Shown piece by piece: positions 1-10,544 of a stretch of DNA of 10,544 nucleotides (positions within the stretch are counted from its first letter, which is position 1; each line of letters starts with the position of its first letter). Position numbers and translations under genes: made by a program. Source of the stretch: a virus (Duplodnaviria > Heunggongvirae > Uroviricota > Caudoviricetes); the IMG/VR virus record IMGVR_UViG_2579778804_000012, positions 1 through 10,544 of that record. One strand, 5' to 3'. The notes below the pieces were generated by a model. The model saw only the letters and a program-made list of their open reading frames with translations. It was not told where the DNA came from and did no database searches.

Positions 1-1218
1 ATGAACAAACTGAGCGATACCTTGCTAAGGAAACTTCATGGTAAGCCAGCGGAGAAAAACACGTTTTATAGCGATGGCGGAAATCTGAGCGTGAAATATT
101 TAACATCAGGGAAATTAACCTGGTATTTCACTTACAGGGCAGGAACGGGAAGAGAGACACGACCGGAACGTATTAAGCTGGGAAATTATCCTGATCTGAG
201 CCTGAAAGCAGCCAGGGAAAAAGCCGCCCAGTGTCGCGCATGGCTGGCGGAGGGGAAAAATCCACGCCATGAGATGAATTACGCCGTACAGGAAGCGTTA
301 AAGCCGGTAACGGTTGGCGATGCGCTCACCTACTGGCTTGAGTCGTACGTAAAGGAAAACCGCGTGGATTATATCGCCCTGAAAAGGCGACTTAATAATC
401 ACGTAATACAGTACATTGGCGCTATGCCGCTGGATAAATGCGAGCTACGGCACTGGCTGGCCTGTTTTGACCAGGTGGCAAAGCGAACACCTGTTACTGC
501 CGGATTCGTGCTACAGACATGCAAGCAGGCGCTTAAGTTCTGCCGGAGGCGGCGCTTTGCAATCAGCAACGTTCTCGATGATCTGAACGTGGCGGACGTT
601 GGGAAAAAACCGGATATAAGCGAACGTGTCTTAAGCACCAAAGAACTGGGCGAGTTATTGCAGGCGCTGGATAAAAAAATATTTTCTCCTTACTACGTCG
701 CGTTAATCCGCCTCCTGATTGTCTTCGGAGCCAGGACGGTAGAACTGAGGTTATCGGAGATCAGCGAGTGGGATTTTACCGAAATGCTATGGACCGTTCC
801 GAAGGAGCACAGCAAAACGAAGGTTGCAATATTCCGGCCCATACCGGAAGCGATCCTGCCGTTCGTCACGCGGCTGGTGGACCAGAACAGGCACACGGGC
901 TTATTACTGGGGGAAGTGAAACAGGAGGCTAGCGTATCGCAGTACGGCAGATTAGCGCACAGGAGGCTAAAACACCCTCAATGGTCATTGCATGACATCC
1001 GGCGCACCTTTACAACCATGCTGAACGATTTAGGCGTTGATCCTCACGTCGTGGAGCAGCTTACAGGCCACCAGATGCCAGGAATGCAACGCGTGTACAA
1101 CCATTCCCGCTATATTGATGCGAAACGCAATGCGCTTGATATGTGGGTGGAGCGGTTGGAGATACTGGCGGGAACACATGAAAACGTAACCACGCTACCA
1201 GTAACCAGAATAAAATAA
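1..1218 (+). CDS. int: tyrosine integrase, P4-type (N-terminal arm-binding-like domain plus catalytic domain)
   Basis: 405-aa ORF. N-terminus LSDTLLRKL..GKPAEK..YSDGGNLSVKY..W.F.YR...LGNYPDLSLKAAREKA matches the P4-family integrase N-terminal pattern; C-terminus HDIRRTF....GHQMPGMQRVYNHSRY fits the H-x-x-R and catalytic Tyr region. Window begins exactly at its ATG. Confidence 0.9.
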   Translation: MNKLSDTLLRKLHGKPAEKNTFYSDGGNLSVKYLTSGKLTWYFTYRAGTGRETRPERIKLGNYPDLSLKAAREKAAQCRAWLAEGKNPRHEMNYAVQEALKPVTVGDALTYWLESYVKENRVDYIALKRRLNNHVIQYIGAMPLDKCELRHWLACFDQVAKRTPVTAGFVLQTCKQALKFCRRRRFAISNVLDDLNVADVGKKPDISERVLSTKELGELLQALDKKIFSPYYVALIRLLIVFGARTVELRLSEISEWDFTEMLWTVPKEHSKTKVAIFRPIPEAILPFVTRLVDQNRHTGLLLGEVKQEASVSQYGRLAHRRLKHPQWSLHDIRRTFTTMLNDLGVDPHVVEQLTGHQMPGMQRVYNHSRYIDAKRNALDMWVERLEILAGTHENVTTLPVTRIK

Positions 1219-1235
1219 TTTTTTTCGTGTTTTTT

Positions 1236-1251
1236 CAGTATGCGCATACTG
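1236..1251. promoter_or_regulatory. perfect 16-bp palindrome CAGTATGCGCATACTG just after the int stop; candidate protein-binding site or hairpin
   Basis: Self-complementary 16-mer read directly; preceded by a T-run (1221-1235). Confidence 0.4.
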
Positions 1252-1260
1252 GATAAGTGC

Positions 1261-1310
1261 ACAGATACAACGTGAAACAATGTGCAACAACGTGACACAA
1301 TCACGAACAA
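1261..1310. repeat. five tandem 10-bp phased units (acagatACAA cgtgaaACAA tgtgcaACAA cgtgacACAA tcacgaACAA); candidate DNA-binding array
   Basis: Exact 10-bp periodicity with invariant ACAA ends and GTGA/GTGC cores, read directly. Confidence 0.6.
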
Positions 1311-1401
1311 GAGGCCAAAAAGAATACAGATTTGTAAGCTACTGATTTTTAATGCTCAGCTGGTTTTTTATACATTAGTGAATTACGCGTTAAAGTGTGC
1401 G

Positions 1402-1438
1402 AAAAAAGGCATAAAACAAGATTTTATGCCTTTGTATT
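1402..1438. terminator. hairpin terminator candidate between int and alpA (stem GGCATAAAA/TTTTATGCC, A-run before, T-rich after)
   Basis: 9-bp perfect inverted repeat 1408-1416/1422-1430, loop caaga, followed by tttgtatt. Confidence 0.5.
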
Positions 1439-1592
1439 AACATGAATTTAAATGATTTTATCCTGATTATTCCTCTTTCTGTAAACCATGCGACACCAAC
1501 ATTTGCCAACTCTGAATCATCCTGACACAATCAGACACATCCCAACGCAATAGAACACGAAATAACTCTTTAAGAAACGAAAGGGGGCAATA

Positions 1593-1781
1593 GTGTTAAG
1601 CACTGATCGGTTTATACGTGAAAAAGAATGCGAAAAGCTAACAGGCCTTAGCCGCTCATGCCGCTACCGCCTGGAAAAGGCCGGACAATTCCCATCACGT
1701 CGTAAACTTGGTGGGCGTTCTGTTGGCTGGTCTTTATCTGAGGTTTTGGCCTGGAAGGATAGCTGCAAGGCAGTTCACTAA
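1593..1781 (+). CDS. alpA: AlpA-family transcriptional regulator / possible excisionase (GTG start)
   Basis: 62-aa ORF; LTGLSRSCRYRLEKAGQFPSRRKLGGRSVGWSLSEVLAWK matches the AlpA signature (TG.SR...Y......FP..RKLG.RSVGW...E...W). RBS AAGGGGG at 1581-1587. Confidence 0.8.
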   Translation: MLSTDRFIREKECEKLTGLSRSCRYRLEKAGQFPSRRKLGGRSVGWSLSEVLAWKDSCKAVH

Positions 1782-1920
1782 AAAGACTGGCGGCACACAG
1801 TCGCCACACATCCACTAATACAGAGATATAACTATGAAGATTGAATATGCGCCCGAACGTGGGCGGGGATTCGTTCGCCCTGGTGAAACTGAAAAACAAC
1901 AAAATTGGGGTTTTTCAGGC

Positions 1921-1950
1921 ATAAAAAAAGCGGCCCCGATATGGAGCCGC
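1921..1950 (-). terminator. candidate intrinsic terminator for the minus-strand small-gene operon (stem GCGGC/GCCGC, U-run on minus strand)
   Basis: Stem 1930-1934/1946-1950 with 11-nt loop; on the minus strand it is followed by the complement of the A-run at 1922-1929. About 75 nt below the stop of the 2025..2228 gene. Confidence 0.4.
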
Positions 1951-2024
1951 CTTTCTGAACAATTAACCTGCTGCGCCTTATGTGTATGTGATCCCAAACA
2001 TAAGCACGGGAATGATAGCCGCTA

Positions 2025-2228
2025 TCAGGCTGGTGGGCAATTACCTTGCTTGTTGGGGCCGTATTGTGCTGCCATTTTCATCCGTTCAGAACGTGAATAT
2101 TTTTTTAGAAACTCATCAAGGACAAAAGCGCATGGAGCGAATCTTTCTGATTCATGCTCGAGCGCCATATTTTCGTGCTCTCTGTTCGTTTTTTGCGATG
2201 GTGTATTGGTTGATTCTTTGTTGGTCAT
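2025..2228 (-). CDS. small acidic protein of unknown function (67 aa), paralog of the 2686..2913 gene
   Basis: Starts MTN.., shares FVLDEFLKKY with FALEDFVDKY in the paralog; identical 43-bp upstream element; RBS AGGT 8 nt upstream. Confidence 0.5.
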   Translation of the reverse strand: MTNKESTNTPSQKTNREHENMALEHESERFAPCAFVLDEFLKKYSRSERMKMAAQYGPNKQGNCPPA

Positions 2229-2237
2229 TGTGTGTAC

Positions 2238-2280
2238 CTGTAAAGCAATGCGCCGGAGTTCCTCACGCCACGGCGCTGAT
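2238..2280. repeat. 43-bp element, copy a (100% identical to 2923-2965), intergenic upstream of the MTN-type gene
   Basis: ctgtaaagcaatgcgccggagttcctcacgccacggcgctgat read identically at both sites; contains inverted repeat GCGCCG..CGGCGC. Confidence 0.9.
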
Positions 2281-2285
2281 GTTTT

Positions 2286-2465
2286 TTATTCTTTGGGTTC
2301 AATACCGCGTTGCTGTAATTCTTTTCGGATTATTCGTTTTATCCAAGCTGCTAAAGAGTCATCACCGTCTTGTTGTTGTGCTTTTTCCATCTTTTCCCGT
2401 AAGTCAGGATCTAAACGGAACTGGAAAGGAGGATTACCACGCCTTTCATTTTTGTGTGTTGACAC
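2286..2465 (-). CDS. Arc/MetJ-type ribbon-helix-helix DNA-binding protein candidate (59 aa from GTG; 34 aa if ATG at 2390)
   Basis: Minus-strand translation ..RRGNPPFQFRLDPDLREKMEKAQQQDGDDSLAAWIKRIIRKELQQRGIEPKE fits the Arc-like strand-helix-helix pattern; RBS GGGGTG 8 nt upstream of the GTG. Absent from the supplied ORF track (non-ATG start, under 60 aa). Confidence 0.45.
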   Translation of the reverse strand: MSTHKNERRGNPPFQFRLDPDLREKMEKAQQQDGDDSLAAWIKRIIRKELQQRGIEPKE

Positions 2466-2486
2466 GTCAATTACACCCCATATAAT
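2459..2486 (+). promoter_or_regulatory. consensus sigma70-type promoter: TTGACA (2459-2464), 16-bp spacer, TATAAT (2481-2486)
   Basis: Both hexamers are perfect consensus with near-optimal spacing; it overlaps the start region of the minus-strand Arc-like gene. Confidence 0.55.
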
Positions 2487-2492
2487 GTGTTT

Positions 2493-2508
2493 ATGTGTAT
2501 ATACACAT
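2493..2508. promoter_or_regulatory. perfect 16-bp palindrome ATGTGTATATACACAT immediately downstream of the -10; candidate operator
   Basis: Self-complementary 16-mer read directly, at about +1 to +20 of the promoter above. Confidence 0.5.
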
Positions 2509-2530
2509 TACACACAACTAGCACAAAAAA

Positions 2531-2599
2531 CAACGCCCCGCAGTGATGGGAACACATACGGGGCGTCTAACCAAACCATTAATTGAGGTAACGATTATG
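2531..2599. ncRNA. structured element copy 1: 7-bp GC stem CGCCCCG/CGGGGCG with 18-nt loop, conserved tail TCTAACCAAACC, RBS and ATG GCT; leader RNA on plus strand and/or terminator on minus strand
   Basis: Stem 2534-2540/2559-2565. On the minus strand it is followed by TTGTTTTTTGTG (terminator-like). On the plus strand it precedes GAGG, then ATG at 2597. Homologous to 3398-3466. Confidence 0.4.
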
Positions 2600-2685
2600 G
2601 CTATAAAAGAGCATAGCTTACTCTTTATACACACACAAACGCCCCGGAAACGGAATAATCCGTTTCATAGTTCGGTTTTGTGCAC

Positions 2686-2913
2686 TCATCCTGGCGGTCG
2701 GTTTTTGCCGGATTTAAGCCGCCGTGGGTATTTATCGACAAAATCTTCAAGGGCAAATTTTTCTGGTGGCACTAAGCGCGGCGCTGGTGGTGGTATTTTT
2801 GTTCTGGTTAGTTCTTCCTCAAGTCTGGCGCAGGCTTCTGACTGCCTTTGCCGGATGATTTCATCATCTTGCGTTTGCGTGTCTTGTATTGGTGATAGTG
2901 TGTTGTTGGTCAT
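2686..2913 (-). CDS. small acidic/proline-rich protein of unknown function (75 aa), paralog of the 2025..2228 gene
   Basis: Starts MTNN.., contains FALEDFVDKY; preceded by the 43-bp element copy b. Confidence 0.55.
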   Translation of the reverse strand: MTNNTLSPIQDTQTQDDEIIRQRQSEACARLEEELTRTKIPPPAPRLVPPEKFALEDFVDKYPRRLKSGKNRPPG

Positions 2914-2922
2914 GTTACTGCC

Positions 2923-2965
2923 CTGTAAAGCAATGCGCCGGAGTTCCTCACGCCACGGCGCTGAT
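2923..2965. repeat. 43-bp element, copy b (100% identical to 2238-2280)
   Basis: Identical 43-mer between the RHH gene stop (2971) and the downstream gene start (2913). Confidence 0.9.
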
Positions 2966-2970
2966 AGTGA

Positions 2971-3277
2971 TTATTCTGATTCTTTGGCCTTGCGGCGCTG
3001 GAGTTCTTCGCGTGCGATGGCGATAAGTTGCCCGAGTTCTTCCGTAGCTTTAATACCAATTTTTTCCACTTGCGCCAATGCATCGAGAGAAGAAATCAGA
3101 GGATTTTCACTGCTTCCTTCTGCCTGGCGGCGGGCGATCTCCCCGCGCATGGCGGTTACTATGAATCCGGCGTTGCTTTCGCCGTCCAGTTTTACGGATT
3201 CCATGCCATCAAAAGCATCATGTGGGATACGAATTGAAATCTGTTTTGATTTGTCGTTGATAGTGTTTTTTGCCATG
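2971..3277 (-). CDS. ribbon-helix-helix (Arc/CopG-like) DNA-binding protein candidate, 101 aa from the MAKNT start
   Basis: KQISIRIPHDAFDGMESVKLDGESNAGFIVTAMRGEIARRQ fits the RHH pattern. Start moved from the track ATG at 3315 to the ATG at 3277, which sits 6 nt after RBS AGGAGA. C-terminus resembles the Arc-like paralog (IAREELQRRKAKESE vs IRKELQQRGIEPKE). Confidence 0.6.
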
Positions 3278-4409: not shown

Positions 4410-5815
4410 AACTGGCACCGAACGTAAAACTATTACCGAAAGACAAATACACCGATGCGATTATTTTTGCGGGTATTGATGCTCACTCATTCGCAGAGCA
4501 TTACATCATTGCACAGGCCAAAAAAGCAGGCGATCCAGTCCCTCCCGTTTATCTGGGGCGTTATCAGTTAAGCGAACTGGATAACCTCCAGATTGTTGAT
4601 GATGGGCGATACAGGGCGACGGTGATACGCGCCGGAAATATTGAAGAGCCGCAGCTGTTAACCATCGCCACGAAACTGGCGATCGCCGGAGTCCAGGAGG
4701 CGCGGCTACTTTCTGAAAATTTCGAATTGCTGGAGGAATGGAGCGACCAGCTTCCACGGCTTAGGGAGGCATGGGAACGCGGGGAAAGCCTGGTCATGAA
4801 AAAAATCCCCCAGCGAAAAACCACGCTACCGATGAGCGTTGGATCTACCGGATACGACACACAGCTTGATTACGTGGTAAAGGGGATTATTCCGGCATCG
4901 TCGCTTTGCAGCATATACGGGGCGAGCGGTTCCTATAAATCATTCCTTGCCGGATCGTGGGCGTGTCACGTTTCCACGGGCCGCCAGTGGGGAGGCCGCA
5001 GGGTGGCGCATGGCGCTGTTCTCTATGTGGTTGGTGAAGGCGGTATCGGCGTTCCGCGTCGTGTAAAAGCCTGGGAGGTTGTGCACGGTGAGCAGGTGAA
5101 AAATCTGTATCTGGTAAACCGTCCCATCTTTCCGGCGGTCCCGCTTGATGTTGATGAAATGGTTATCGCTGCCCGTCAGGTGGAGCGGGAAACGGGTAAA
5201 CCTGTACGCATGATTATTCTGGATACGCTGGCGCGTTGCTTTGGTGGGAATGATGAAAATGATTCCCGTGATATGGGGGCGTTTATCCGTGGTTGTGACG
5301 AACTGAAACGACGCACAGGGGCCACGGTGCTGGTGGTTCACCATTCCGGCAAGGATGAGACGAAAGGCGCGCGCGGTTCCAGTGCATTTCGTGCATCACT
5401 GGATGCTGAATACCGGATACGCAGGGAGGACGCAGGAAGCGAAGCGCTGGTTATCTCATGCACCAAAATGAAGGACGCGGAGGAACTCAAAGAAGCCGCA
5501 TATGACTTACGCGTGGTGGAGCTGTTTACCGACGCTGACGGGGAGTTAATCACGTCGCTGGTGGTGGTGGATAAGCCGCGCCCTCCCGTTGAACTGGAAC
5601 GCATCGAGGAGGCAGGCAACAAGACGGAAAACCATACCGCACTATGGGGGTGCATCCGTTCACGCACACAGAACGGCGACAAGTGCACGATCCCGCTGTT
5701 ACGTGATGACATGAAACGGCTTGGGTATGACGTGAAAAATATGCGGCGATGGTTAGCCAAACTGGAAAAAGACGCCGTGATTTACATTGATGGTGATGAT
5801 GTAGGACCACTGTAA
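4406..5815 (+). CDS. RepA-like replicative helicase / RecA-fold AAA ATPase with C-terminal DNA-binding region
   Basis: 469 aa; Walker A GASGSYKS, Walker B-like VRMIILDTLAR, then VLVVHHSGKD; an iteron array lies immediately downstream. Confidence 0.85.
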   Translation: MKLAPNVKLLPKDKYTDAIIFAGIDAHSFAEHYIIAQAKKAGDPVPPVYLGRYQLSELDNLQIVDDGRYRATVIRAGNIEEPQLLTIATKLAIAGVQEARLLSENFELLEEWSDQLPRLREAWERGESLVMKKIPQRKTTLPMSVGSTGYDTQLDYVVKGIIPASSLCSIYGASGSYKSFLAGSWACHVSTGRQWGGRRVAHGAVLYVVGEGGIGVPRRVKAWEVVHGEQVKNLYLVNRPIFPAVPLDVDEMVIAARQVERETGKPVRMIILDTLARCFGGNDENDSRDMGAFIRGCDELKRRTGATVLVVHHSGKDETKGARGSSAFRASLDAEYRIRREDAGSEALVISCTKMKDAEELKEAAYDLRVVELFTDADGELITSLVVVDKPRPPVELERIEEAGNKTENHTALWGCIRSRTQNGDKCTIPLLRDDMKRLGYDVKNMRRWLAKLEKDAVIYIDGDDVGPL

Positions 5816-6015
5816 AAAGTGAGTAGCAAAAGTGAGTAATGGTGAGGTTTTTACAAAATATTAACACGATTACTCACTTTCTCACCTGTATACATGCTCA
5901 AAAGTGAGGAGTAAAAAAATCCTTATGAAACACACACATAAAGCATCAAAAAATATCAAGTGAGACGAAGCGAGACGCTTTAAAAAGTGAGGTGTAAAAG
6001 TGAGCATGAGTGAGG
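5816..6015. repeat. iteron array, putative replication origin: at least 9 copies of (A)AGTGAG in both orientations with AT-rich spacers
   Basis: GTGAG at 5819, 5832, 5842, 5904, 5960, 5987, 6000, 6010; inverted CTCAC at 5874 and 5881; AT-rich stretches 5850-5870 and 5911-5957. Confidence 0.6.
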
Positions 6016-6269
6016 AGATAACCAAAATGCGCAGAGACAGAACAGAGCCGAAATATAAAGCGTTAGACATGACAGAGCACGCCTTAAAGGTGGCAATCAG
6101 GGTAATAGACCGCCACGCGGGGGAAGGATACGCGAAGGAGCATCCCGAACTGATAAGCGCATTCATGACCACAGCGGCGGCAAACTTTGCCACGCTGACA
6201 GAGCGGGAGATTGCGGAAGCTGAACAGGTGACAACCATCAACGTTAAAAACGTAGAGGTGGAATCATGA
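6000..6269 (+). CDS. hypothetical protein (about 87-89 aa)
   Basis: GTG 6000 or ATG 6006 after GAGG; its stop overlaps the ssb-like start. Confidence 0.55.
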   Translation: MSMSEEITKMRRDRTEPKYKALDMTEHALKVAIRVIDRHAGEGYAKEHPELISAFMTTAAANFATLTEREIAEAEQVTTINVKNVEVES

Positions 6270-6702: not shown

Positions 6703-6727
6703 AAGCCGGAGAAATCCGGCTTTTTTG
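6703..6727 (+). terminator. rho-independent terminator after ssb (GCCGGA gaaa TCCGGC + TTTTTT)
   Basis: 6-bp GC stem, 4-nt loop, 6-T run, read directly. Confidence 0.7.
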
Positions 6728-6732
6728 TAGGT

Positions 6733-6880
6733 ACTCCTGGTGGGGGTGCCTGTCCACGGGGCGGCGGGGCGCGGAAAAAGGCGCATTTTTTGATTTTTAT
6801 GGCACCATCACCACCACTATAAGTTATTGATATATTGAGGAATAAAAATTTTTAGTGTCGAATCAGGTTGTTTTTTGTTC
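6733..6880. repeat. ~150-bp element, copy A: GC-rich core CTCCTGGTGGGGGTGCCTGTCCACGGGGCGGCGGGGCGCGGAAAAAGGCGCATTTTTT, His-codon-like CATCACCACCAC tract, ending GGTTGTTTTTTGTTC
   Basis: Aligns block by block with 9270-9420; both copies sit immediately after an intrinsic terminator. Confidence 0.7.
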
Positions 6881-9235: not shown

Positions 9236-9240
9236 CAACA

Positions 9241-9264
9241 AGGCGGCACCAGCCGCCTTTTTTG
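9241..9264 (+). terminator. rho-independent terminator after the capsid gene (GGCGGC acca GCCGCC + TTTTTT)
   Basis: 6-bp GC stem, 4-nt loop, 6-T run. Confidence 0.7.
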
Positions 9265-9269
9265 CGGGT

Positions 9270-9420
9270 CCTCCTGGTGGGGTGGGCCTGAACACGGGGC
9301 GGGCGGCGCGGAAAAAAGCGCATTTTTGTGATTTTATCGTCATCATCATCATGTGTGTAACCTATTGTTTTTAATGTGGTTGATGCAAAAAAGATGATGA
9401 AGAAGGTTATTTTTTGTTCG
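9270..9420. repeat. ~150-bp element, copy B (homolog of 6733-6880)
   Basis: CTCCTGGTGGGGTGGGCCTGAACACGGGGCGGGCGGCGCGGAAAAAAGCGCATTTTTG, then CATCATCATCAT, then GGTTATTTTTTGTTCG. Confidence 0.7.
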
Positions 9421-9888: not shown

Positions 9889-9930
9889 GTGACGGAGAGT
9901 GACAACCAGTGACACACCGTGACAAAAAGA
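9889..9930. repeat. four tandem 10-bp phased GTGAC units (GTGACggaga GTGACaacca GTGACacacc GTGACaaaaa)
   Basis: Exact 10-bp phasing read directly; same motif family as the 1261-1310 array. Confidence 0.6.
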
Positions 9931-10000: not shown

Positions 10001-10391
10001 AGCGAAAAATTCTGATTAAGGTCACTGGCTGAATGGTCATAATGACCACGCAGACCATCGAGGCAACCATAGCGATCATCGTTACGGTTGGAGCTTTTCC
10101 GCCATTGGTGGAAAAGGTGCACATCTGGATCATCATTACGGTGATCAAGGGTATGTAAAACCCACCAGCCTGATTAAATGTTAACCGGAAAAAAAATCCG
10201 GTAGCCCCGTTATGGGAATCCCCATATCGACAGCAACGCCCCCTTAAAATTACCCGCCTTTATATTTCTTGTGCCTATTTGTTCCACGTTGTTTCATACA
10301 GTGCGCCGAACGGTGTAGTCACTGGTGTAGTTATTTTGAGTTTTTTTGCACTTCGGGCTTAATTGAAAATATAATTAAATCAATATGTTAT

Positions 10392-10544
10392 TCAAAATAG
10401 GTTATATATAACAGCAATAAATAATGCGAGAATAAACGGCACGATGATCTCGGCGGCAAAACGGATACCGCAGAGAATAATGACCAGCATTCCCAACATA
10501 ATGACGATTTTTAGGCCATTGAGCGTGATGATCGGCTTTGCCAT
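10392..10544 (-). pseudogene. 5' fragment of a membrane transporter gene (51 codons, 46-aa hydrophobic N-terminus); TqsA/PerM-like from memory, unverified
   Basis: Minus-strand ATG at the window edge encodes [46 protein letters not shown], then YNLF and a stop at 10392-10394; far shorter than a full transporter. Confidence 0.45.

Follow-up and report, generated by a model that had tools for sequence, protein, structure and literature searches.

The window, i.e., the whole 10,544-nt stretch of viral DNA analysed here, is a Gram-negative phage-inducible chromosomal island (PICI) of the EcCICFT073 family, ∼10.6-11.1 kb in length and inserted within E. coli tqsA. It shows the marks of its class: int, alpA and a replication gene that read rightward, a length in the range of ∼10-15 kb, its own att site, and phage late genes at the right end. 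Pfam and RefSeq matches indicated a P4-type integrase, AlpA, an Icd-like protein, a DUF4222 protein, a RepA-type helicase, SSB, and a ClpP-protease/capsid fusion. The iterons of the RepA helicase, AAAGTGAG-type repeats 83-85 bp apart, are found at positions 5810-6030 just downstream of the helicase gene, the place equivalent to that of PICI origins. E. coli 89-3156 carries the window sequence except for a single mismatch at position 10324. Its tqsA gene is split, with the C-terminal part to the left of int and the first 48 codons at positions 10401-10544; the block common to attL and attR is ATAACAGC, located at positions 10408-10415 in attR. The prototype EcCICFT073, inserted at roxA/phoQ of CFT073, has the same layout as the window island, and its AlpA differs from the window AlpA by a few residues. 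The features of the int-alpA region are as follows:

1 to 1218, plus strand: int, P4-type tyrosine integrase (Pfam Arm-DNA-bind_3, Phage_int_M, and Phage_integrase; the RefSeq start is 12 nt upstream of the window)
1236 to 1251, no strand: perfect 16-bp palindrome CAGTATGCGCATACTG, seen in the sequence and lineage-specific
1261 to 1310, plus strand: Array 1, five head-to-tail 10-bp units with the consensus c-g-w-G-R-A-ACAA, proposed AlpA operators (from statistics and conservation)
1402 to 1438, plus strand: intrinsic-terminator-like hairpin AAAAAAGGCATAAAA-caaga-TTTTATGCCTTTGTATT (fold -13.9 kcal/mol; conserved in all relatives)
1503 to 1531, plus strand: predicted alpA promoter, TTGCCA-17 bp-CACAAT with a TG upstream of the -10 (consensus scan)
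1521 to 1560, plus strand: Array 2, made up of CCTGACACAA, TCAGACACAT, CCCAACGCAA, and TAGAACACGA, four units in 10-bp register that overlap the predicted -10/start region
1593 to 1781, plus strand: alpA, encoding a 62-aa winged-helix regulator/excisionase-type protein, the proposed binder (Pfam Phage_AlpA, PF05930, E = 5e-18)

A first-pass annotation of this DNA had described a 16-bp perfect palindrome between int and alpA followed by five 10-bp units ending in ACAA, and both are present. The Array 1 units, in order ACAGATACAA, CGTGAAACAA, TGTGCAACAA, CGTGACACAA, and TCACGAACAA, are contiguous at exact 10-bp spacing and each of them ends in ACAA. The GTGA/GTGC cores also attributed to the units occur in three of the five, but they do not form the consensus; what the relatives conserve is G-R-A-ACAA, not GTG. 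The array is far from what chance would give. The pattern ACAA-N6-ACAA-N6-ACAA, with at most one mismatch allowed, has 7 matches in the window (0.12 expected), and none of 200 shuffles had as many. Across the whole island, an identical 4-mer recurs four or more times in a row at 10-11 bp intervals at only three places, one directly upstream of int, one spanning 1267-1307, and one spanning 9889-9920; the expected number is 0.015.

The spacer between int and alpA is present in 878 of 5426 complete E. coli genomes with an identity of 70-100%. We compared 14 distinct versions from 19 loci and four integration sites, including Shigella, IMG/VR contigs, and EcCICFT073. The motif and its phasing are kept in perfect register: the spacing is exactly 10 bp in all 14 versions, while the intergenic DNA around the array falls to ∼70% identity. 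Full-length versions have five or six units, with the exception of one three-unit version. Of the 71 units, all have A at position 7, C at position 8, and A at position 10, and 69 have A at position 9. Position 4 takes G or C, a purine stands at position 5 in 58/71 and A at position 6 in 54/71, and positions 1-3 vary freely. An invariant ACAA beside free spacer bases over ∼30% divergence argues for selection rather than decay, and a conserved ACAA, biased positions 4-6, and free positions 1-3 are together what a protein-binding site under selection should show. We concluded that Array 1 is a real, conserved, helically phased array. A minus-strand ORF (1110-1310) and a plus-strand ORF (1282-1440) that run over the array were discounted on account of the indels that the relatives carry inside their span.

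The palindrome fared differently as a part of the same apparatus. Taken alone it is weakly significant (two perfect 16-bp palindromes in the window vs. 0.16 expected), and it is confined to the five-unit versions of the array, which form one sub-lineage. In the six-unit versions, those of EcCICFT073-type islands included, a further ACAA unit occupies its place. The palindrome is lineage-specific, not conserved, and probably dispensable. Its predicted hairpin has a free energy of -9.7 kcal/mol. A role as the int terminator was rejected, there being no T-tract on either strand.

To look for further copies of the motif, a position matrix was trained on the Array 1 units only, and sites were scored as the sum of three consecutive units at 10-bp spacing. 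The best scores in shuffles of the island served as the null (95th percentile, 15.3; maximum, 18.8). Array 1 itself scored 35, a circular value as the matrix was trained on it. Two more copies lie in the att arms, next to a tandem doublet of 12-bp repeats:

62 to 101 bp before the first base of the window, minus strand: attL-arm array copy, located between int and the attL core (three-unit score 28.6)
10269 to 10298, minus strand: attR-arm array copy with three units, TATGAAACAA, CGTGGAACAA, and ATAGGCACAA (three-unit score 33.0), which forms an inverted repeat with Array 1
10312 to 10335, plus strand: tandem doublet GGTGTAGTCACT/GGTGTAGTTATT, ∼88 bp from the crossover, proposed Int arm-type sites (from position and format, and from co-variation with Int)
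10400 to 10415, no strand: attR core inside tqsA (split tqsA annotation and junction comparison)

The inverted copy at 10269-10298 in the attR arm and the copy just upstream of int had both been overlooked in the first-pass annotation. The attR-arm array is kept in all relatives compared, whatever their integration site, and each close relative examined that reaches both island ends has the Array 1, attL-arm, and attR-arm sites. Two capsid-forming islands (cf-PICIs; L006 and L008) carry an extra array ∼210 bp upstream of the capsid gene (score 28-33), and in a more distant island (L031) phased units are also present just upstream and just downstream of alpA. Host flanks (>10 kb per locus, >100 kb in all) contain no matrix site, and the matrix picks out no sites in P4. 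The arm array of locus L017 was ranked low by the matrix. Array-type units are unchanged across three replicase types, i.e., RepA helicase, D5/DUF5906 primase, and DUF927. The distant loci came from several searches. A genome-collection scan with AlpA gave 3 loci, two of which were too distant for use; a word-indexed protein search gave 19 AlpA relatives, three of which (P0014, P0015, and P0018) led to loci L013-L018. A 16-mer scan of IMG/VR returned 91 stretches, most of them chance matches by estimate, and ∼36 of the 80 examined had an array or an AlpA/Int match.

Each att arm has three or four phased 10-bp units, a 4-bp spacer, and a 12-bp doublet (GGTGTAGTCACT twice). The order in the attL arm is core, four TTGT units, GATC, doublet, and int, so that the units lie between the core and the doublet; in the attR arm three phased units stand beside a doublet. 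The doublets are ∼145 and ∼88 bp from the core in the window island. Comparable distances are on record for two other groups of elements: in P4, 12-bp tandem doublets annotated as 'attP arm sequence repeat' lie at ∼134 bp from the core center on the side of int and at ∼75 bp on the other side, and in the helper-embedded PICIs (HE-PICIs) a doubled motif is found at 132 and 81 bp (Williams laboratory 2023).

The doublets and the ACAA units behave differently when the integrase changes. Islands with the tqsA-type N-terminal domain of Int (N-domain) have the doublet GGTGTAGTCACT in the arms examined, and islands with the other Int N-domain have GGTGTAGTTAAT. The doublets thus switch between CACT and TAAT forms with the Int N-domain, while the ACAA units are the same in both groups. 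One such pair is L002 and L008, which have an identical AlpA (WP_000953272) and the same ACAA arrays but different Int N-domains and different doublets, a contrast seen in the attL arm. For the attR arm, the same split of doublets is found between L001 and L002. Three more distant islands, listed with the identity of their AlpA to the window AlpA, have doublets of their own:

L013 (fis site), AlpA 66% identical: doublet TGGTGTAGTCAT, with adjoining phased units of the CGAACAA type
L031, AlpA 64% identical: doublet TGTGTGGTCAGT, with adjoining phased units of the TTGTTCG type
L015 (68% GC), AlpA 64% identical: doublet TGGTCCAAA, with two CTGTTTC units that are the top matrix match in 20 kb

The N-terminus of the L015 Int is very divergent, and units of the GAAC/GAAACA type are still kept there. 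By their position and format the 12-bp doublets look like Int arm sites. Since the doublet follows the Int N-domain and the ACAA units do not, Int is disfavored as the binder of the ACAA units.

Between Array 1 and alpA lie a hairpin and a predicted promoter. The hairpin at 1402-1438, in which some relatives have a G-U change, probably ends int transcription and insulates alpA. Among the relatives the distance from the last array unit to the hairpin is 111-114 bp and that to the predicted -35 is 192-196 bp. TTGCCA-CACAAT is the sole promoter predicted by the consensus scan in the int-alpA region; its hexamers and 17-bp spacer are kept in 10 of 10 loci, despite a 10-bp indel downstream in some of them. 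A GACACA repeat at 1524-1539 had been assigned to the same family as the Array 1 units. The repeat exists, and the first unit of Array 2 (1521-1530), which overlaps the predicted alpA -10, matches the motif, but the other units are poor: the four scores are 10.1, 3.5, -2.9, and -2.9, and the only good match is CCTGACACAA. The three-unit score of Array 2 beats the null in three relatives (18-22 in L003, L007, and L021). A sigma-70 promoter just downstream of Array 1 was considered and rejected, as the conserved block there, CTGGTTTTTTATACA, has poor hexamers and is uncalled by the scan. Inspection by eye from Array 1 to alpA gave no convincing match to a sigma-54 promoter or an IHF site. Rfam gave nothing credible on the region, its one match to a Brucella sRNA having 28 bits against a cut-off of 114.

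A GTGAC array near the right end had likewise been placed in the family. This array, four strictly phased GTGAC units at 9889-9926, exists, but it does not belong with the others: its best matrix sum is -3 vs. 28-38 for true copies. A similar array of four TGTCAC units is present in L007, ∼600 bp from a small-terminase pseudogene. Among six islands whose right ends were compared, the GTGAC array is found only in L001 and L004, the two that have the protease-capsid fusion module. It is more likely tied to the late/packaging module than to AlpA.

Published work on AlpA can be set beside these sites. The window AlpA is 47% identical to P4 Vis (ORF88), and among PDB entries it matches 8c3t, which is of the AlpA family. 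In EcCICFT073, PalpA-lacZ responds to AlpA in trans by activation; judged from its primers the PalpA fragment runs from ∼30 bp before the int stop to about codon 20 of alpA, roughly 430 bp, and contains Array 1, the hairpin, and Array 2. Pint-lacZ is unchanged by AlpA. Over-expression of AlpA leads to excision and replication of EcCICFT073, for which int and pri are required. An alpA fragment of EcCIMP1 (-449 to +50) is boosted by AlpA, and in the Vibrio PICMIs alpA in trans is sufficient for excision without an effect on transcription. Transcription of alpA is turned on by helper phages. The PICI papers on EcCICFT073, EcCIMP1, and the PICMIs name no AlpA binding motif. P4 Vis is an excisionase and a late-promoter regulator, which binds the attP region (EMSA and DNase I footprint) and bends att DNA.

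Recombination directionality factors (RDFs) are described as binding direct repeats spaced by one helical turn. In the window island there are direct repeats one turn apart, att-arm copies by the doublet, and a gene for a small winged-helix RDF. The reading we prefer, with a probability of about 0.55, is that the ACAA units are head-to-tail, one-turn operators for the Vis/Xis-like AlpA and the doublets Int arm sites. We infer AlpA as the putative binder from position, co-variation, and analogy. The first-pass annotation had left the choice between a recombinase arm domain, a directionality factor, and a regulator. That the array is conserved, phased, and recurrent at the att arms supports its proposal of binding in kind; a directionality factor or regulator is favored, and an arm domain is disfavored by the doublets, which track the Int N-domain. 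A site upstream of the capsid operon or downstream of alpA is likewise expected of a regulator and not of an integrase arm site.

Under the AlpA reading, one AlpA monomer would occupy each 10-bp unit, head to tail and on one face of the helix, and binding would be cooperative and DNA-bending, as described for Xis, Cox, and Apl. AlpA at both att arms, beside Int on the doublets, would shape the excisive complex and drive excision. AlpA at Array 1 and at the unit over the alpA -10 would give the positive autoregulation reported for alpA, and in capsid-forming relatives AlpA may also act at the head of the late operon. As a guess, Array 1 might raise alpA transcription from ∼200-250 bp upstream by architectural bending or looping; such a role is weakly favored by a distance too great for RNA polymerase contact at the predicted promoter. 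Several points speak against AlpA. Pint-lacZ is unaffected in EcCICFT073, although the fragment should hold the attL-arm array, and Array 1 is ∼192 bp upstream of the predicted -35, too far for ordinary contact activation, with no convincing promoter right after the array. Arrays in both arms also depart from the one-arm sites of lambda-type Xis, and the matrix misses P4 and gives the L017 arm array a low rank. AlpA is also nearly invariant in the close family, so that co-variation there can exclude Int and cannot prove AlpA.

The array could be bound by some other protein, e.g., a helper-phage inducer, a host response regulator of the OmpR/PhoB type, or an island protein such as DUF4222, which we consider unlikely. 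The switching-on of alpA by helper phages is in its favor, and the three 10-bp TGnCTTTAA repeats that P4 has upstream of vis keep the idea of a helper factor alive. We take these repeats to be P2 Cox boxes; a helper-phage inducer would be analogous to P2 Cox, which activates P4 PLL through such 10-bp boxes. Tandem 10-bp half-sites of the GAAACA type also resemble the sites of OmpR. DUF4222 occurs in all close relatives, and small conserved island proteins (DUF4222 and Icd-like) remain candidate binders, but DUF4222 has no tie to DNA binding. Against a foreign binder, the arrays adjoin Int sites in both att arms, where the element's own directionality factor acts, and the motif and an AlpA homologue are kept together in a 68% GC organism. 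The helpers are diverse (lambda and phi80), which makes one shared phage-encoded binder less likely. An obligatory second factor is disfavored by the EcCICFT073 PalpA reporter, reported to respond to AlpA without helper phage or any other island gene.

We doubt even more that the ACAA units are arm-type sites of the N-terminal domain of the island Int, like lambda P'1-P'3, with Array 1 serving Int in the regulation of its neighbors. Copies do stand on both sides of the core in the same orientation, and the lambda P' arm sites are three tandem repeats of ∼10 bp. The N-terminus of P4 Int is said to repress Pint, so that an integrase can regulate. On the other side, the position of the annotated P4 arm repeats is taken here by the 12-bp doublets, and the HE-PICIs have their doubled motif equivalently placed. 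A change of Int N-domain goes with a change of doublet but not of the ACAA arrays, which are identical with two Int N-domains; units of the GAAACA type are kept in islands with a very different Int. Arrays are also found far from the core: Array 1 is separated from the attL core by ∼1.45 kb that include int, the cf-PICIs have an array before their capsid operon, and L031 has phased units downstream of alpA.

A bolder version of the AlpA reading, which we regard as improbable, takes the ACAA units as a satellite-wide AlpA regulon (excision, a self-amplifying alpA switch, and late genes). Array 1 would then be a loading platform whereby AlpA, or a cross-recognizing Xis/Cox-like inducer of the helper, lets int transcription pass the terminator into alpA. 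If true, this read-through would be the step by which helper phages switch on Gram-negative PICIs.

It is very unlikely that the array acts as RNA in the int 3' UTR, as a platform for AlpA or another RNA-binding protein that affects int mRNA stability or read-through into alpA. The array does lie between the int stop codon and a conserved terminator, and P4 Vis also binds RNA transcripts, according to the Gifsy-1 Xis paper. In the att arms and upstream of the late operons, however, the motif is inverted and the ACAA strand would not be the one transcribed with the neighbors, and a strict 10-bp period belongs to double-stranded DNA rather than to RNA. Least probable of all is that the repeats serve as iterons of a replication origin, or that they are left over from a duplicated att arm and have no function. 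Origins do typically have short tandem repeats, and Array 1 looks like the arm array inverted, but the island has its separate iteron set downstream of the helicase gene, the arrays stay the same whichever of the three replicases is present, and the invariant ACAA beside free bases over ∼30% divergence does not look like a relic.

Gram-negative phage satellites, which carry virulence and defense genes between bacteria, have AlpA as their master switch. The candidate AlpA operator is G-R-A-ACAA repeated every 10 bp, and its copies map to the two att arms, to alpA, and to late operons. A concrete target opens the questions of whether AlpA is excisionase and activator in one, how it cooperates with Int, and where the helper signal enters. 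The motif could also aid the annotation of PICI boundaries. Arrays of this kind are already known for directionality factors; the new part is best read as a specific candidate target for AlpA.

The closest precedents for the layout are phage 186 Apl, P2 Cox, and lambda Xis, which bind direct repeats one turn apart cooperatively and head to tail, a repeat layout that Array 1 shares. Apl has five repeats at att and seven at pR-pL, and both Apl and Cox have arrays at att as well as at promoters. There are three differences. At the promoter arrays Apl and Cox act as repressors, and AlpA is reported to activate; Array 1 is ∼200 bp upstream of the predicted promoter rather than over it; and lambda-type Xis sites are found on one arm only, whereas the window island has arrays in both arms. 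The P. aeruginosa AlpA antiterminator belongs to the same Pfam family and likewise works with a promoter-linked element and an intrinsic terminator in the operon leader. Its element, however, is a single GGGACG-N5-GGTA located between the -35 and the -10 of a promoter that precedes the terminator. The window island and its relatives have an array of five to six units and a terminator between the array and the predicted alpA promoter, which is not the P. aeruginosa arrangement.

P4 is the nearest match in the att region. Its attP has 12-bp tandem doublets annotated on both sides of the core, at distances almost as in the window island. The int side of P4 shows, in order, about four units with a TCC set 10-11 bp apart, a 4-bp spacer, and a doublet, to be compared with four TTGT units, GATC, and a doublet in the attL arm of the window island. 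The motifs differ (GGGGGCAYA and TCC units in P4 vs. TGTAGTCACT and GRAACAA in the window), and the phased P4 units are a putative Vis site. The comparison suggests that AlpA-type sites can be separated from Int arm sites in P4-type attP regions. P4 is without an array after int, where the window island has Array 1. Vis reportedly acts as a repressor of PLL and Pint. PICI AlpA differs in that it activates the promoter of its own gene and leaves Pint unaffected.

The HE-PICIs have a doubled attP motif, tgTGTATTGCantgTGTATTGCa, which has a period of 12 bp and stands once on either side of the core in the same orientation, like the GGTGTAGTCACT doublets of the window island. The HE-PICI paper (Williams laboratory 2023), which is without a description of adjacent 10-bp phased units, called this motif unique to the HE-PICIs and gave the Int arm domain and AlpA as alternative candidates for its binder. 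The doublets described here extend the 'doubled motif' to ordinary PICIs.

The island interrupts tqsA, an AI-2 transporter gene, which is split between positions 10392-10544 of the window and 7907-8812 of L001, the locus that includes the window. The N-terminal 48 codons of tqsA read into island DNA and meet a stop after VIYNLF. Since the reading frame ends in island DNA, the insertion inactivates the host gene and does not restore it.

Within the window, the following elements were located:

1384-1400 (within 1369-1447): small hairpin or palindrome, immediately ahead of the conserved terminator-like hairpin near alpA
2493-2508: second perfect 16-bp palindrome, ATGTGTATATACACAT, between the small genes read leftward and the operon read rightward
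5810-6030: AAAAGTGAG(G/T)AG-type repeats, 83-85 bp apart, directly downstream of the RepA helicase gene
6860-6880 and 9399-9419: further parts of a duplicated late-region module
9889-9926: GTGAC array, CGTGACGGAGAGTGACAACCAGTGACACACCGTGACAA, four units with 10-bp start-to-start spacing

The hairpin ahead of this terminator varies by paired changes across relatives, reading CACGCTTTAAAGCGTG in the PICI locus L006 and CTCTTTAAAGAG in L008; its region may be a short leader or an sRNA. A weak Rfam match to a Brucella sRNA in 1369-1447 was sub-threshold (28 bits vs. a cut-off of 114). The second palindrome may serve another regulator as its operator. In the variable zone after alpA, two paralogous small genes that run leftward share a 75-nt direct repeat at their 5′ ends (2218-2292 and 2903-2977, 85% identical). 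The RepA-adjacent repeat region, which also holds a 49-nt repeat pair 168 bp apart, is likely the replication origin.

In the late region, a module of ∼100 bp occurs in two copies (6703-6800 and 9240-9337; 77-79% identity), each with a terminator hairpin followed by a G-rich stretch and then GGAAAAAGGCGCATTTTTTGATTTTTAT. One copy precedes the capsid operon and the other the last gene (93 aa), and the two may be duplicated late promoters or control regions. The GTGAC array is limited to L001 and L004, the two islands that carry the ClpP-protease/capsid fusion module. In a third island, L007, TGTCAC occurs four times at 19999-20036, and a pseudogene for the small subunit of terminase lies ∼600 bp away. 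The GTGAC array may be a packaging or late-module site and not a site for the regulator AlpA.

Capsid-forming PICIs carry an additional TTGT array of five units, which directly follows a terminator and precedes the capsid gene by ∼210 bp:

L008, 19197-19247
L006, 20208-20237
L070, 7711-7740 (IMG/VR contig, one example of many)

GATCGG follows the units both there and in the att arms, whereas the 12-bp doublet of the arms is absent at the capsid array. The doublets flank the core:

Window 10312-10335: 12-bp tandem doublet, GGTGTAGTCACT twice, one side of the core
L001 8942-8965 (35-58 bp before the window begins): 12-bp tandem doublet, GGTGTAGTCACT twice, other side of the core

The final four bases of the doublet are CACT or TAAT, switching with the Int N-terminal domain, and the sole difference between the window and strain 89-3156, G/A at 10324, falls within a doublet.

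Phage P4 (L012, 3966-4010) has, beside its int-side arm doublet, approximately four units that contain TCC and recur every 10-11 bp, with a spacer of 4 bp after them. These units may be where Vis, the AlpA relative, binds, and their layout is the same as that of the TTGT units here. The annotated 'attP arm sequence repeats' of P4 and the doubled motif of helper-embedded PICIs (HE-PICIs) are the positional equivalents of the 12-bp doublets described here.
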